Virus record (IMG/VR): IMGVR_UViG_2703718827_000002
Coordinates: 1 to 50,082 of that record
DNA length: 50,082 bases
Strand: one strand, 5' to 3'
DNA from: a virus
Taxonomy: Duplodnaviria > Heunggongvirae > Uroviricota > Caudoviricetes
Shown here in pieces: positions 9,045 through 48,315 of the stretch; position 1 is the first letter of the stretch, and every line of letters starts with the position of its first letter. The position numbers were made by a program, and so were the translations under genes. The notes beneath the pieces were generated by a model. The model worked only from the letters and a program-made list of their open reading frames with translations. It had not been told where the DNA came from and made no database searches.

Positions 9045-9047
9045 TAG

Positions 9048-9080
9048 TCAAAAGCCTCCGGTCGGAGGCTTTTGACTTTC
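9048..9080. terminator. Bidirectional terminator between convergent yciA and tonB
   Basis: Long inverted repeat TCAAAAGCCTCCG / CGGAGGCTTTTGA with A/T runs on both sides. Confidence 0.7.
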
Positions 9081-11638: not shown

Positions 11639-11690
11639 TGCCCCAAAATGCCCCAAAGCAGACATTTTTGCCCCAAGTATGCCCCACAAG
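11639..11690. repeat. Four direct TGCCCCA(A/C)A repeats with helical phasing
   Basis: Copies start at 11639, 11649, 11669 and 11680 (spacings 10, 20, 11 bp), about 120 bp inside the yecE junction. Confidence 0.6.
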
Positions 11691-23039: not shown

Positions 23040-23420
23040 TTAGTTTAGGAGGCCTGATTTAACTTCTGTATTTGAATTATTAAATAAGTAATTATCTACA
23101 ATATCGCCCTTAAACACGATTATAAGCTGCTTCATGTTGGTAGTAGCGCCGTTATCAAATAGTCCATAGATGGGAATAAATGCTTTCCCGCTGACCTGTG
23201 TGTTTGTGAAAACATAGTGCCACTGTTCTTTCCCATCACTGGAGATTGATACCCCAGTTGGATCTCCATATGCAGCCTTAACCTCTTGCTTCGTCGTCTT
23301 TCCTTTGATTATTTTACTCTGAATGCCAATCTGCGTTTCTTGCTCAATCGACTTATTGCCGCCAGAAGCACAACCGGCAAGTACAACCGCTATTGCTGCA
23401 ACCAATAGAACCTTTTTCAT
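23040..23420 (-). CDS. Lipoprotein with BamE (SmpA/OmlA)-like fold signature
   Basis: MKKVLLVAAIAVVLAGC lipobox; KQEVKAAYGDP...EQWHYVF resembles the BamE motif; ATG 23420 with GGGGA RBS (track start 23480). Confidence 0.6.
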   Translation of the reverse strand: MKKVLLVAAIAVVLAGCASGGNKSIEQETQIGIQSKIIKGKTTKQEVKAAYGDPTGVSISSDGKEQWHYVFTNTQVSGKAFIPIYGLFDNGATTNMKQLIIVFKGDIVDNYLFNNSNTEVKSGLLN

Positions 23421-23560
23421 ATCCCTATCCCCATCAGTAAATGATGCGGCAATCGTAGCAGAGGGGAAGCGATACGACAAAGCAACCTGTTCGCTTATCA
23501 GGATGTTCAGCGGTACGATAGCAAGGTAGCCTTGAAGCAGGCATCAACCAAGGAATCATC

Positions 23561-36581: not shown

Positions 36582-37228
36582 CCACCGAGCACCCCGTCCT
36601 GATGTTTCTGCGCTGCCGCCTCCCAGTCATCCACGTTGTCACTGGTTGGCACCAGCATGACGTTATGGGTGACCTCTTTCGTTTCAGCCTTATTCTCGAT
36701 GCTGTATGCCTCACGCTCGAGGCCGATCAGCGTCTTTAGGCTGTCGCTCAGGTCTTTCATGGATTTAACGCGGGAAGGCAGGCTGATCACTTTCTGATAA
36801 ATTTCATTGAGCCGGTCCCGCCCTTTATCGTCGGGGTCAAACATGATGTCGCCCAACTGCTCGAGCGCGCTTACATCTGCGCACTGCGCACCAAGTTCAT
36901 CGAATAGCGTGTTGGTCAGTTCACGAGCCCGGCGGATGTCTCCCCGGTGCTCCATGCGTACCGTGGCAATTACCTCGGCAGTCGCCTCTATCAGTACGCG
37001 CTCGGTCAAAGTGCTTTCGTTGCGTACCTGTTTGCGTACCTCCTGTTTGCGTACCAGATCATCAGCCTTTTGCTGAATCTTCGCATTGAGGTCACGCGAC
37101 CAGTCGTCACGCTTGGCACGCTTACGGATAGCGCCTTCGCTAATACCGTGCTGTGAAGCAATTTCTCGGAGGGACATCACTCCGGCCCGGTACGCCGTCT
37201 CGATGGCCTCCCAGTCCGGTTTGCTCAT
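36578..37228 (-). CDS. Terminase small subunit
   Basis: N-terminal helix-turn-helix (MSLREIASQHGISEGAIRKRAKRDDW), position upstream of the large subunit. Confidence 0.75.
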   Translation of the reverse strand: MSKPDWEAIETAYRAGVMSLREIASQHGISEGAIRKRAKRDDWSRDLNAKIQQKADDLVRKQEVRKQVRNESTLTERVLIEATAEVIATVRMEHRGDIRRARELTNTLFDELGAQCADVSALEQLGDIMFDPDDKGRDRLNEIYQKVISLPSRVKSMKDLSDSLKTLIGLEREAYSIENKAETKEVTHNVMLVPTSDNVDDWEAAAQKHQDGVLGG

Positions 37229-39511: not shown

Positions 39512-39587
39512 TGGTGCTGATTGACGGAGTTGAACCGCCGACATCCTGCTTACAAGGCAGGCGCTCTACCTACTGAGCTAAATCAGC
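39512..39587 (-). tRNA. tRNA-Thr (anticodon TGT), phage-encoded
   Basis: Hand-folded cloverleaf: 7-bp acceptor stem GCTGATT/AATCAGC, D-arm GCTC/GAGC, anticodon arm CCTGC-CTTGTAA-GCAGG, T-arm GGCGG-TTCAACT-CCGTC, 3' ACCA; differs from recalled host tRNA-Thr. Confidence 0.8.
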
Positions 39588-42629: not shown

Positions 42630-42911
42630 TTAGTCGTCCACGCGTTTAAAGCACTGCGGGCAAACATCATTTCCACCGTGTTCTTCGTATGCGCTTTTAA
42701 CAGCATCAGTCATCTCTTTAAAGCTTTCGAATAGATGACTACCGTTGCTTTTTTTATAAGCTCCGGCTGCGTATTTGTAGATGTCGGACTCTTCTATGCC
42801 CTCATCAACATAAGTGCCCTCATGATGAGGGCACTGCGTTAAAGCGCCAACCCTACCAAGCATCTCCAATGCCCAACACTCTTGTTTCATGCAAAGTTGA
42901 TCGATACTCAT
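42630..42911 (-). CDS. Cys-rich hypothetical protein (93 aa)
   Basis: ATG 42911 with AGGAGG RBS (track start 43004); paired CxxC motifs. Confidence 0.5.
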   Translation of the reverse strand: MSIDQLCMKQECWALEMLGRVGALTQCPHHEGTYVDEGIEESDIYKYAAGAYKKSNGSHLFESFKEMTDAVKSAYEEHGGNDVCPQCFKRVDD

Positions 42912-45465: not shown

Positions 45466-45761
45466 ACCCCTACCCTCCCCCAAACCATCAATACTCGCTT
45501 CATCGCCGCGCTGTTGCGGCACTCCTGAAATATTCCGTTGGTGCAGCTGCGCGCGGTACCATCTTGCTCTTCCGGCGTCGCCAGGCGGTAAGTCACCGTT
45601 CGCCAGACCTTGCTCACGCGCACAATCTTCCTGGCCCGCTCCAGATCGATAGCGTTCTTGGTGATGCAGTTGATGGTCATGACGCACTCTGTGGCCACAT
45701 CCTTCGCAGTGAAGGTCCGGTGCGTTTCGAGATAACGCAGAATTGCCTGTTTGCCTTTCAT
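45462..45761 (-). CDS. Small DNA-binding-like protein (99 aa)
   Basis: Start overlaps helicase stop (TGATG). Confidence 0.45.
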   Translation of the reverse strand: MKGKQAILRYLETHRTFTAKDVATECVMTINCITKNAIDLERARKIVRVSKVWRTVTYRLATPEEQDGTARSCTNGIFQECRNSAAMKRVLMVWGRVGV

Positions 45762-47197
45762 CAGAAGCCCCCTTTCTTTTTCGGCTGCTGCTCGCGCCCG
45801 CGACGTTCTGCGGCGGCGGCCTGCTGGTCTGTGTCGTAAATTGCCCCGTTAATCTGATTGCAATAAACCGTTCCGGTACTGCCGTGGCGGTTGAGTCGCA
45901 GGATTAACTCGGTTTCGCCCGGCGGCACGCTGTCATCGAAAGCACCTTCCCGGTGGATACCAACCCAGTAGTCGCAGTCCTGCTCAATCTGTCCTGTGTC
46001 GCGGGAATCACTCGGCAACGGGCGTTTATTCACTCGCTTCTCCAGTTCGCGGTTGAGCTGAGTCAGCAGCACGACGACGCAGCCAAGCTCTTTGGCCAGG
46101 TTCTTCAACCCTTTGGTGATCATCCCGTAGGCCAGGTCATTACGGTCTGCTTTTTCGGCGGTCATCAGCGTCAGGTAGTCAACCAGAATCATGCCTACGC
46201 AGCCTTTCTCGCGCTTAATTCGACGGCATTCGGTAACGATATGCGCCAGTGACAGGCCAGGAGTGTCGTCGATGTACAGCATGTCGATTTCACTCAGCCG
46301 CCCGGCTGTTGCGATCGCCTTCTTAAAGTCGCCGTCGTAGTCGCCCTGATACTGGTCATCGGCATCATCCGTGGCGGGCATGTAAAAAATGCTCGGGTTA
46401 ATGCCCGACTTCTGACCAACCAGTTTTTCGAGGATCTGGTCGCCTGGCATTTCCAGGCTGAACATCAGCGCCGGCTTTTTCTCACGAACCGCGCAGTTGA
46501 TCGCCATCTGCCCGTACAGGGTTGTTTTGCCCATTTTTGGCCTTGCGCCAATTACGAACAGAGAGCCTTTAACCAGACCTTTCGGCGCCAGCAGCCGGTC
46601 GAGTGACGGGATACCGGTACTCATGCCGCGCTGTTCGCCTGAGGGGTCAAATCGTTTTTCCAGATCTGCTACCCAGTCATCCATAACCTCGCCGAACGAC
46701 CGCAACCCACGACGATTTCCGGTTTTTGAATGATCTGCGAGCTGGGTGAAGATACCCTGAATGGCCTCATACTTCTGCGTAGCGCTCATACCGTTGCGGG
46801 AATACAGCAGCTCAGTAGCTTCGGTCAGACGGTTGATACCGTAGCGCTCCATTGCGGCTTCCCGGACTGATTCTGCGTATGCCACGATGTTTGCTGCGCT
46901 TGGAGTGTTCTTGGCTATCTCCGCCAGGTAAGCAAAGCCACCTACCTGCTCCGCGAGCCCTTTTCCTTCAAGCGCGTCGAACAATGTCAGACCATCGACT
47001 GGCTTGTTGTCGCGGAACATCTGGCGCATCTCGGCAAAGATCAGCTGGTGAGGTCGGCTGTAGAACGACTCAGGCTTGAGCATCGCCAGAACCTTCTGGA
47101 CTCGCTCGCTGTTGTCATCATCCAGCAGCAGGCCACCGATAACGCTCTGCTCCGCTTCGAGGTTTTGTGGCACAGCCATGAATTCAGCGGTCATCAC
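45761..47197 (-). CDS. Replicative DNA helicase (DnaB family)
   Basis: N-terminal DnaB domain (NLEAEQSVIGGLLLD), Walker A GARPKMGKTT, 478 aa. Confidence 0.9.
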   Translation of the reverse strand: MMTAEFMAVPQNLEAEQSVIGGLLLDDDNSERVQKVLAMLKPESFYSRPHQLIFAEMRQMFRDNKPVDGLTLFDALEGKGLAEQVGGFAYLAEIAKNTPSAANIVAYAESVREAAMERYGINRLTEATELLYSRNGMSATQKYEAIQGIFTQLADHSKTGNRRGLRSFGEVMDDWVADLEKRFDPSGEQRGMSTGIPSLDRLLAPKGLVKGSLFVIGARPKMGKTTLYGQMAINCAVREKKPALMFSLEMPGDQILEKLVGQKSGINPSIFYMPATDDADDQYQGDYDGDFKKAIATAGRLSEIDMLYIDDTPGLSLAHIVTECRRIKREKGCVGMILVDYLTLMTAEKADRNDLAYGMITKGLKNLAKELGCVVVLLTQLNRELEKRVNKRPLPSDSRDTGQIEQDCDYWVGIHREGAFDDSVPPGETELILRLNRHGSTGTVYCNQINGAIYDTDQQAAAAERRGREQQPKKKGGF

Positions 47198-48083
47198 GAT
47201 CCCCCTCGCGCACTTCGATGTAGAGCTTTTCGGTCAGGAACTTATCGAATTTCATGCGGCGCCAGGTTTTCCCGGATTTCTGGTCTGGTCGGTCTTCAAG
47301 CATCCAGCGGCAGTTTTGAGCGATATATCGCAGATAGCTTCTGAAACCGTCCATATCCATCGGCTTGCCGTCCAGGTTGCGGGCAATCTTGTTAGCCTTA
47401 CCCCAGAAGGTGCGGATCAGATTGCGTCGCTCATCAGTGAGGCATCTCCATCCCCGGGCTTCAGGCAGTTCGTCTTTCAGGCATTGCCATACTTCATCGC
47501 ATGACAAACGGGACTTTTTCTCTTCAGCGGGGTTCTGGTCATTTGCGACATACTTACTACCTTTAGGTAGTAAGTTATTTAATATATTGTTATCTGTGGA
47601 CACCGGCTGGACATCGGCTGGACACACATCCTCCACAGGCATTGTTATTACTGCGTTTGCGCTGGACACTGGCTGGACATCGGCTGGACAAAAATTTGAC
47701 TGATATTCGTCATATTTGACCACTTTTAGAACAGTAAAACGGTTGTTCGATTTGGTGGTGATCATGCCCAGATTCTGGAATTTACGGAGCAGTGATTTAA
47801 CGCGATCAGCGGTCAAACCCGTTTCCATTGCCAGCGTGTTACGCCCGGTGATGAACTCGCCGCGCTCGCAGATCACATCGCCAACATCAGTCGATACCAG
47901 TGTCTGTTCGTGATTAGCGCGCAGGAGCAGGTGAACCCATAAATGAGCCGCCTCAGCGTCCTTGTAGAACGGCACATCCATAATTTTACGGTGCAGCAAG
48001 GCAAACCCCTTACCGTCATTCGTGCGCGGTTTCTGGAGCCTTCTGGCCTCTCTGGCTTCGGCTAAATTGGATACGTTACCCAC
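47184..48083 (-). CDS. Replication initiator (lambda O-like) with internal origin iterons
   Basis: N-terminal helix-turn-helix region, repeated CPADVQPVS peptide encoded by the iterons; GTG start with AAGGAG RBS. Confidence 0.7.
   Translation of the reverse strand: MGNVSNLAEAREARRLQKPRTNDGKGFALLHRKIMDVPFYKDAEAAHLWVHLLLRANHEQTLVSTDVGDVICERGEFITGRNTLAMETGLTADRVKSLLRKFQNLGMITTKSNNRFTVLKVVKYDEYQSNFCPADVQPVSSANAVITMPVEDVCPADVQPVSTDNNILNNLLPKGSKYVANDQNPAEEKKSRLSCDEVWQCLKDELPEARGWRCLTDERRNLIRTFWGKANKIARNLDGKPMDMDGFRSYLRYIAQNCRWMLEDRPDQKSGKTWRRMKFDKFLTEKLYIEVREGDRDDR
47551..47689. repeat. Origin of replication: TGGACA iterons at 11-bp phasing plus palindrome and AT-rich segment
   Basis: Six TGGACA cores in two clusters (47597-47623 and 47662-47689), perfect palindrome ACTTACTACC-TTT-GGTAGTAAGT at 47551-47574, AT-rich stretch 47575-47593. 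Confidence 0.7.
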
Positions 48084-48315
48084 GGCCACTCTCCTTACGT
48101 TTCAATTCTTCCAGGATGGCGCGCATCTTCTCTGCCACAATCGGGTTAACCGAGCGGATGAAGCGGTCGCGGGCTATGTTTTTATGTACAGCGGTATGGT
48201 AATAGCGTGGATTTTTTGCCATTATTCCTCCTGCAATGAGTGCACACGATTTGCATCTGAAGGCCAGTTCTGTTCGCGCAGACTGGCTTTCGCCATTTTT
48301 GATACTTCCCATCAC
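48076..48315 (-). CDS. Hypothetical protein (79 aa)
   Basis: ORF between the YdaT-like gene and the O-like gene. Confidence 0.45.
   Translation of the reverse strand: MMGSIKNGESQSARTELAFRCKSCALIAGGIMAKNPRYYHTAVHKNIARDRFIRSVNPIVAEKMRAILEELKRKESGRG

Follow-up and report, generated by a model that had tools for sequence, protein, structure and literature searches.

We analysed a 50,082-nt stretch of viral DNA (hereafter, the window), which comprises positions 1 to 50,082 of the IMG/VR record IMGVR_UViG_2703718827_000002 (Caudoviricetes), and came to the view, held with a probability of about 0.85, that its segment 47552-47690 is the theta-replication origin of a lambdoid temperate phage of the Klebsiella/Enterobacter type. 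The confidence is not set higher because we found no experiment on this type of origin, and the site at which DNA synthesis starts is itself a prediction. The putative origin is situated in the linker-coding part of the gene for an O-like replication initiator. Along the direction of translation it consists of a triplet of 11-bp repeats, a spacer, a second triplet, an AT-rich run and a palindrome, all of which lie within the initiator open reading frame (ORF) on the minus strand (Table 1).

Anatomy of the repeat array

On the plus strand the hexamer TGGACA starts at positions 47597, 47608, 47619, 47663, 47674, and 47685; in the sense of the gene the core of the repeated unit reads TGTCCAGCC. 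The six cores form two triplets with an 11-bp phase within each of them and 66 bp between them. A repeat finder aligned the 33-nt blocks 47597-47629 and 47663-47695, situated 66 nt apart, with 91% identity, and Tandem Repeats Finder assigned a period of 11 to both, which confirms the six cores, two clusters and 11-bp phasing described in a previous reading of these letters made without database searches (the sequence-only reading). The element was placed there at 47551-47689; this location holds, except that the last core ends one base further, at 47690. The palindrome and the AT-rich stretch named there are indeed both present downstream of the repeats, although in the opposite order, the AT-rich run preceding the palindrome.

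Such an array is hardly expected by chance. Among hexamer clusters in the 50 kb, that of TGGACA is the strongest (six copies within 100 bp), while in 100 first-order Markov simulations of 50 kb the largest cluster had three members (88 runs) or four (12 runs). Each arm of the palindrome is 11 nt long, with 2 nt at the centre; the window contains three perfect palindromes whose arms reach 11 nt or more, and 29 of 30 simulations gave none. No inverted repeat within or between the units of a triplet was detected by the repeat search. Two further candidate signals were rejected. The 7-bp inverted repeat CTGTGGA/TCCACAG around the AT-proximal triplet was considered coincidental, its left arm being variable in close relatives (CTGCGGA, CTGTTGA, and others), and the string GTGTCCACA of the last unit, which coincides with the DnaA box TTATCCACA at 7 of 9 positions, is not conserved as such, other lineages having ATTACCACA or TTGTCCATA at this place.

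Table 1. Elements of the putative origin, the initiator that harbors it, and the adjacent helicase gene
Feature	Position in the window	Strand	Remarks
O-like replication initiator gene	47184..48089	-	301 aa from GTG 48089; close relatives annotated from GTG 48083 (299 aa)
N-terminal winged-helix domain, residues 27-130	47700..48011	-	AlphaFold2 model
Predicted recognition helix, residues 94-106	47772-47810	-	AlphaFold2 model
Iteron triplet 1, distal to the AT-rich run	47663..47690	-	sense units TGTCCAGCCGA, TGTCCAGCCAG, TGTCCAGC(GCA) at 47690, 47679, 47668
Spacer between triplets	47625..47662	-	sequence free, length fixed; triplet starts 66 nt apart
Iteron triplet 2, adjoining the AT-rich run	47597..47624	-	sense units TGTCCAGCCGA, TGTCCAGCCGG, TGTCCA(CAGAT) at 47624, 47613, 47602
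AT-rich run, presumed DNA-unwinding element	47576..47596		sense CAGATAACAATATATTAAATA; 3 G/C in 21 bases
Perfect 24-bp palindrome	47552..47575		plus strand ACTTACTACCT TT AGGTAGTAAGT; arms 47552-47562 / 47565-47575
Predicted disordered linker, residues 131-193	47511..47699	-	predicted local distance difference test (pLDDT) <50; encoded by the DNA holding all origin elements
Helical C-terminal domain, residues 197-295, presumed helicase contact	47205..47501	-	AlphaFold2 pLDDT 76-89
DnaB-type replicative helicase gene	45761..47197	-	14-nt overlap with the initiator 3' end

Conservation of the layout in the initiator family

The same layout was traced through a set of 247 loci from phage records and IMG/VR, representing 172 distinct genes, by an unbiased search over offsets and spacings. 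In all 172 genes, with a one-base register shift allowed, the first unit is located 27 nt past the K codon of the motif KYD[DE][YF]Q (KYDEYQ in the window). The distance between the triplets equals 66 nt in 171 of the 172, so the length of the spacer is constant, while the length of the AT-rich run differs by 3-6 nt between lineages, and the palindrome follows the last core at a distance of 18-23 nt everywhere except in one deletion variant. The exact two-unit string, paired 66 bp apart, also occurs in genomes of Citrobacter, Kosakonia, several Enterobacter species, and Izhakiella. The database search retrieved 1,674 homologues of the initiator, and no Pfam domain was present among the matches listed; this appears to be a widespread initiator family without a Pfam model.

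A codon alignment of eight diverse homologues showed that in each gene the 11-nt units form two triplets at an equivalent position, every phage having a unit of its own: the core is TGTCCAACG in ST160 and Sf6 (also in L), TTACCAGCA in HK630, TTACCAACA in Pantoea phage PA-1, GTGCCAACA in Klebsiella phage ST101-KPC2phi6.1, and TGTCCAGCC in the window phage. Clustering of the domains at 80% produced 12 N-domain and 10 C-domain clusters. Each of the 12 N-domain clusters is associated with one core only, taken from TGTCCAGCC, TGTCCAACG, GTGCCAACA, TTACCAACA, TTACCAGCA, and TTCCCAACA, and some of these cores recur across several clusters. The two domains combine in 25 different ways, the crossover falling at the AT-rich run, and the C-domain is exchanged independently of the N-domain. 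For instance, the IMG/VR loci L081-L090 combine an N-domain, units and AT-rich run of the window type with another palindrome and C-domain, starting right after ...AATAAC (the equivalent of about 47576), and the IMG/VR locus L080 has units of the HK630 type followed by a palindrome and C-domain of the window type. The constancy of the unit core within an N-domain lineage fits recognition of the units by the N-domain. Residues 98/99, located in the predicted recognition helix, vary along with the unit in all 16 N-domain clusters obtained at 85% (K98/S99 with TGTCC, K/Y with (G/A)TGCC, Q/Y with TT(A/C)CC). A two-residue recognition code was nevertheless discarded, as this pair was chosen post hoc and columns M88, T63, R57, and K113 are associated with the unit more strongly; we regard the pair as a lead only.

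Natural deletion variants exist as well. Proteins P0002-P0008 (277 aa) are shorter by exactly 22 residues, which corresponds to an in-frame deletion of 66 nt with one triplet kept. In one of these loci (L262, 1895-1970 of the Salmonella enterica contig AAPTRA010000044.1; the sequence is present on 20 contigs) the single triplet stands directly before the AT-rich run and the palindrome, and the retained triplet in the deletion variants is triplet 2, the AT-proximal one. A similar deletion was found in locus L131, belonging to the GTGCCAACA lineage. This suggests that the AT-proximal triplet alone may suffice; in lambda, the two iterons nearest to the AT tract are sufficient in vitro, as cited in PMC7466680.

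Selection acting on DNA

The codons of a triplet, TGT CCA GCC GAT GTC CAG CCA GTG TCC, encode CPADVQPVS, so that the DNA is repetitive and the peptide is not repetitive internally: since the period of 11 is not a multiple of 3, each unit of a triplet falls in a different frame. The nonapeptide occurs twice, at residues 134-142 and 156-164, because of a duplication of 66 nt (22 codons) at the DNA level, of which it is a by-product; the sequence-only reading had likewise explained the repeated peptide by the embedded origin. Contrary to the refuting condition named in that reading, the repeats are also more than a consequence of coding, in view of the three frames and of their conservation at the DNA level in relatives.

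Diversity was calculated for 62 distinct near-relative genes (>90% nucleotide identity). At third codon positions it amounts to 0.039 in the units, 0.005 in the AT-rich run and 0.008 in the palindrome, whereas the remainder of the gene has 0.099 (Mann-Whitney p = 9e-5); in other words, synonymous sites of these three elements are about 3-20 times less variable. In the same sample the core positions TGTCCAGC of triplet 1 are essentially invariant. The spacer behaves in the opposite way, since over all codon positions it varies more than any other part of the gene: in 47630-47662 the diversity at codon positions 1 and 2 is 0.137, as opposed to 0.008 outside it (Mann-Whitney p = 4e-20), and exceeds even that at position 3 (0.079). 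With its free sequence and fixed length it looks like a phasing spacer. Between lineages, all six units change together. The out-of-frame 11-nt period, the low synonymous diversity, the free spacer of fixed length and the concerted change of the units allow us to conclude, from comparison of sequences, that the repeats are under selection at the level of DNA and not at the level of the peptide.

A separate observation concerns the 40 nt upstream of triplet 1 (47696-47735, coding for TVLKVVKYDEYQSNF, GC about 0.30), where third-position diversity among close relatives is 0-0.024. This segment might belong to the origin as an additional element, or merely encode a strongly conserved peptide.

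AT-rich run and palindrome

The GC content falls to 0.275 over 47560-47599. According to nearest-neighbour energies, the segment 47547-47596, containing the AT-rich run and the palindrome, is the least stable 25-, 40-, and 50-bp duplex of the gene and the second least stable of the 50 kb, lying about 4 standard deviations from the mean. The only less stable site of the window, 23056-23105, spans the end of the gap after a 1124-aa ORF and the 3' end of the ORF 23040-23480.

As single-stranded DNA, the palindrome folds into a hairpin of -8 kcal/mol (z = -4.1). It is represented in the family by 19 distinct 28-nt versions with at least 10 different arm sequences, and the symmetry is kept in all of them. 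Both sides are altered at 8 of the 11 pairs, and one-sided changes leading to G-T are absent from the 209 pair cells; pairing holds in 92% of the cells, a share that drops to 64% in shuffles and to 36-49% once the partner is displaced by 1-3 columns. Invariance is limited to the outer CT...AG and the central T.A. The alignment used here was centred on the symmetry axis, which favours structure; nonetheless, in all genes the element occupies one place in the codon alignment. An mRNA hairpin would explain the lack of wobble pairs less well than a requirement acting on the two strands of the DNA, whether as a symmetric duplex site, as a cruciform, or as hairpins on either strand. A correspondence between the palindrome sequence and the C-domain was sought and rejected, one C-domain cluster occurring with several palindromes and one palindrome with several C-domain clusters. 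Because the sequence is thus not bound to a particular C-domain cluster, the comparison argues for recognition of the palindrome by shape rather than by sequence.

The initiator and its genomic neighborhood

The initiator ORF matches PHROG 345 ("replication initiation O-like") with an E-value of 1.9e-68 and is homologous over its full length to the O proteins of HK022, HK620 and Stx phages, gp18 of the P22-like phages ST160 and ST64T, and gp43 of Sf6, so the assignment of the host gene as O-like in the sequence-only reading was correct. PHROG 24933 matches residues 182-301. No Pfam family, the phage O families included, scored above the curated cut-off; the match to MksE (18 bits against a cut-off of 27 bits) was disregarded. 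The nearest phages by nucleotide identity of the initiator gene are Enterobacter phage CobraSix (gp56, 97%) and Klebsiella phage Chronis (gp46, "putative DNA replication protein", 92.5%); neither record has an annotated origin. IMG/VR contains copies of the initiator with 100% amino-acid identity.

In the AlphaFold2 model, built from a shallow alignment of homologues with at least 72% identity, the N-terminal domain contains a helix-turn-helix (helices 83-90 and 94-106) and a beta-hairpin wing (110-123), with pLDDT of about 64-81. The top Foldseek matches in the PDB are all winged-helix DNA-binding domains (CodY, CRP, MarR, SmtB), and a profile search of PDB sequences for solved relatives produced no matches at E <=1. 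As the segment modelled with low confidence is exactly the part coded by the units, the AT-rich run and the palindrome, the origin is, judging by the model, written into a linker whose amino-acid sequence is of little importance.

The gene downstream encodes a helicase of the DnaB type (Pfam DnaB_C, E 1e-58; DnaB N-terminal domain, E 9e-32; PHROG 19, E 1e-132), and the pair of initiator and DnaB-type helicase genes is found in all annotated relatives. The genes are arranged in the order cI-like repressor (divergent, S24-peptidase), cro-like, cII-like, a small ORF, initiator, helicase, and this order identifies the locus as an early rightward operon of the lambdoid kind, comparable to that of lambda.

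Two side observations concern the upstream part of this operon. The small ORF 48076-48315 (minus strand) that follows the cII-like gene and precedes the initiator matches PHROG 1913, "tail protein", and RefSeq repeats this label; a tail function is unlikely because the ORF occupies the hkaW/orf48 slot of HK620/HK022, and the label is probably a propagated annotation error. The first ~50 codons of the initiator gene (47931-48082; query bases 748-899) share 85-86% nucleotide identity with HK620, HK022, mEp235 and many Stx phages, whereas the rest of the gene has no such identity; this 5' segment resembles a conserved boundary of lambdoid mosaics.

Comparison with known origins

Six imprecise repeats of the 11-bp sequence TGTCCAACGGA in gene 18 of phage L were called "likely the origin", and were contrasted with the four repeats of ~20 bp each in lambda and P22 (PMC8022706). 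The GenBank record of Sf6 contains a putative rep_origin in the equivalent region, "reminiscent of the phage lambda origin", with a reference to HK620. L gene 18, Sf6 gene 43, the O genes of HK620, HK630 and HK022, gp18 of ST64T and ST160 and several Stx phages all have the layout of putative origin that is present in the window. A tblastn comparison covering 91-100% of the window initiator gave 42-54% identity to those of Sf6, ST160, ST64T, HK630 and Stx phages, and the motifs KYD, NCRWM and REG..DD are invariant and common to the window and the initiators of the L/Sf6/HK620 type. The window shares with this type the two triplets of 11-bp units, set at a distance of 66 nt, with the first unit 27 nt past the K codon of KYD[DE][YF]Q, the AT-rich run and then the palindrome downstream of the units, and the DnaB-type helicase gene immediately downstream; it differs from these relatives in the unit core TGTCCAGCC and in the palindrome sequence. 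On every sequence criterion, therefore, the window element belongs among the putative origins of the L/Sf6/HK620 type, with a unit variant of its own. This layout has already been described for L, Sf6 and HK620, by sequence analysis only, and a lambdoid arrangement is expected and will not surprise a specialist. The papers on the family that we consulted mention the repeats only, and we found in them no description of the palindrome, the fixed spacing or the compensatory changes; the work on O proteins and iterons of Stx phages concerns iterons of the lambda type.

For lambda it is established that O binds the iterons and that the DNA unwinds at the AT tract (PMC7466680, PMC3349717). The sequence-only reading had stated that the window element mirrors ori-lambda. 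This is true of the embedding midway in the initiator gene, where the element separates the codons of the DNA-binding N-domain from those of the C-domain, of the order of repeats, AT-rich run and palindrome along translation, as read from the lambda record, and of the operon, which is the early rightward one with homologues of cro and cII upstream. Gene O in the lambda record contains four annotated iterons, then an A/T-rich run, then a palindrome of 28 bp whose 12-nt arms are 92% complementary. The details are different, as the same reading had already noted for the iteron sequence. The lambda iterons are four in number, 18-20 bp long, with internal dyad symmetry and a spacing of 20-24 bp, are each bound by an O dimer, and pair as inverted repeats, whereas the window has six 11-bp direct, head-to-tail units, arranged 3+3 and without dyad; the AT-rich run is ~38 bp long in lambda and 21 bp in the window; and lambda P loads the host DnaB, whereas the corresponding gene of the window encodes a DnaB-family helicase itself. 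Strict membership in the lambda type fails because of the iteron grammar and the partner protein, and the comparison supports an element that works like ori-lambda without being of the lambda type in detail.

P22 provides a parallel for the gene pair: as described in PMC8022706, its genes 18 and 12 are an initiator gene with internal repeats (four, ~20 bp each), followed by a phage DnaB-type helicase gene, as in the window; the gene 18 protein of P22 and the L-type protein are reported to share 25% identity. The N-domain of the window initiator is 28-37% identical to "DnaD-like" or "replication initiation" proteins of staphylococcal, lactobacillal and Vibrio phages. An origin inside the gene of its own initiator is also known for Gram-positive phages such as SPP1, in gene 38, encoding the "replisome organizer". 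In iteron plasmids, winged-helix Rep monomers occupy direct repeats beside an AT-rich region, a layout resembling that predicted for the window, although the plasmid iterons are longer (~17-22 bp versus 11 bp).

The results locate a probable origin for a prophage group that is common in Klebsiella, Enterobacter, Citrobacter, Kosakonia and Salmonella, and whose published members CobraSix and Chronis have been annotated without one. The core TGTCCAGCC is a sixth unit "specificity" in a family where N-domain and unit sequence change together, and the series of units and N-domains is natural material for studying the switching of DNA specificity by winged-helix initiators. The comparative data (66-bp spacing, free spacer, compensatory palindrome, one-triplet variants) could guide work on this type of origin.

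Proposed mechanism and alternative explanations

The initiation of replication in the window phage could proceed as follows. The N-terminal winged-helix domain of the initiator would bind the six 11-bp units; with one unit per helical turn and 66 bp (six unit lengths) between the triplets, the bound domains should be located approximately on one face of DNA. The resulting initiator-DNA complex would stress and open the adjoining AT-rich run 47576-47596, and the C-terminal domain would recruit the DnaB-type helicase that the phage itself encodes in the adjacent gene, without a loader of the lambda P type. The 24-bp palindrome past the AT-rich run may act via its symmetry and not via its sequence, possibly as a hairpin or cruciform once the DNA is unwound. 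A more elaborate version of this scheme, which we put forward tentatively and consider rather doubtful, is a two-module origin, in which the N-domain and the six units constitute a specificity module and the palindrome a module recognized by shape only; here the 11-bp register would favour underwound DNA and so aid melting of the AT-rich run, and the hairpin or cruciform would mark the site of helicase loading or be detected by host defences that respond to origin structures, such as Lamassu. If true, it would give a testable role to the long-known and poorly explained palindrome of the lambda origin, kept in both types of initiators.

Several facts weigh against the assignment of 47552-47690 as a replication origin, or at least against parts of it. 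In the searchable literature we found no experimental test of origins of the L/Sf6/HK620 type, the published statements being sequence-based predictions. The initiator model is moderate (mean pLDDT 65), and the Foldseek fold matches are weak, with E-values of 9e-3 or more. The relationship of the initiator to lambda O is probably remote, and the homology rests on one profile match: residues 16-169 of lambda O match PHROG 345 (E 5e-17), which is the sole link to the N-domain of the window initiator, while the pairwise comparison of the two proteins gave a BLASTP E-value of 2.4 and an hhalign probability of 0.1% (with a shallow profile of 8 sequences), and the window initiator does not match PHROG 277, that of lambda, at E <=0.001. 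The link between unit and N-domain is not separable from shared ancestry and close physical linkage, which could account for it; no single column of the N-domain alignment partitions the unit classes, and the best columns are not concentrated in the recognition helix. Finally, lineages with one triplet persist in Salmonella and Klebsiella, so the two-triplet geometry is perhaps not essential.

As to other explanations of the same features, it is very improbable that the repeats are a mere by-product of a duplicated linker peptide, having no cis-acting role. Such a reading would agree with the 66-nt duplication being in frame and giving two copies of CPADVQPVS, and with the location of the repeats in a region that codes for a predicted disordered linker, tolerant to duplications; however, the 11-nt sub-repeat is out of frame with itself and so cannot arise from repetition of a peptide, suppression of synonymous change affects the units and spares the remainder of the gene, the spacer varies in peptide but, in 171 of 172 genes, not in length, even though the AT-rich run does differ in length, and the six units change in concert. 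Somewhat less improbable, but still poorly compatible with the data, is the assumption that the units bind the initiator or another protein for the purpose of control (autoregulation, copy-number "handcuffing", exclusion of related phages), the origin being situated elsewhere. Iteron arrays of plasmids do serve in negative control as well. Cloned lambda iterons inhibit the replication of phages with the same replication type (PMC3349717), and the start of DNA synthesis is, in the present data, deduced and not located. On the other hand, the units lie beside the weakest duplex of the gene and a conserved palindrome, in the order of the proven lambda origin, and the 50 kb contain no second TGTCCAGCC array, the matches with at most one mismatch being single and occurring at the frequency of chance (13 versus ~12 expected).

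The palindrome, taken separately, could be an element of RNA or transcription (an mRNA hairpin, an RNase III site, an antisense terminator) lying outside the origin. We consider this unlikely, though it is the least improbable of the three alternatives. Read on the plus strand (antisense with respect to the gene), the hairpin precedes TATTTAATAT and was flagged by the terminator scan, but terminator-like sites of this kind number 1 against a mean of 1.3 in shuffled sequence, and the stem has only 4 G-C pairs. Besides, all changes within the 209 pair cells of the 19 versions are Watson-Crick swaps, with not a single G-T (G-U in RNA), and the palindrome of the lambda origin is located at the same relative place.

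Other features of the window

Some minor features were noticed outside the initiator locus. Two short repeat clusters were found: four copies of TGCCCCA(A) within ~50 bp at 11639-11690 (ATGCCCCAAAATGCCCCAAAGCAGACATTTTTGCCCCAAGTATGCCCCAC), possibly a protein-binding array, and four copies of TGCGTACC at 36955-37055, three of which are closely spaced as TTGCGTACC (GTTGCGTACCTGTTTGCGTACCTCCTGTTTGCGTACCAG). A tRNA-Thr gene (anticodon TGT, 39512-39587, minus strand) is the sole Rfam or ARAGORN match in the window. The other two palindromes with arms of at least 11 nt are located at 42813-42835 (AGTGCCCTCAT G ATGAGGGCACT) and at 9046-9077 (AGTCAAAAGCCTCCGG TC GG..., then TTTCTGC), the latter resembling a two-way intrinsic terminator.

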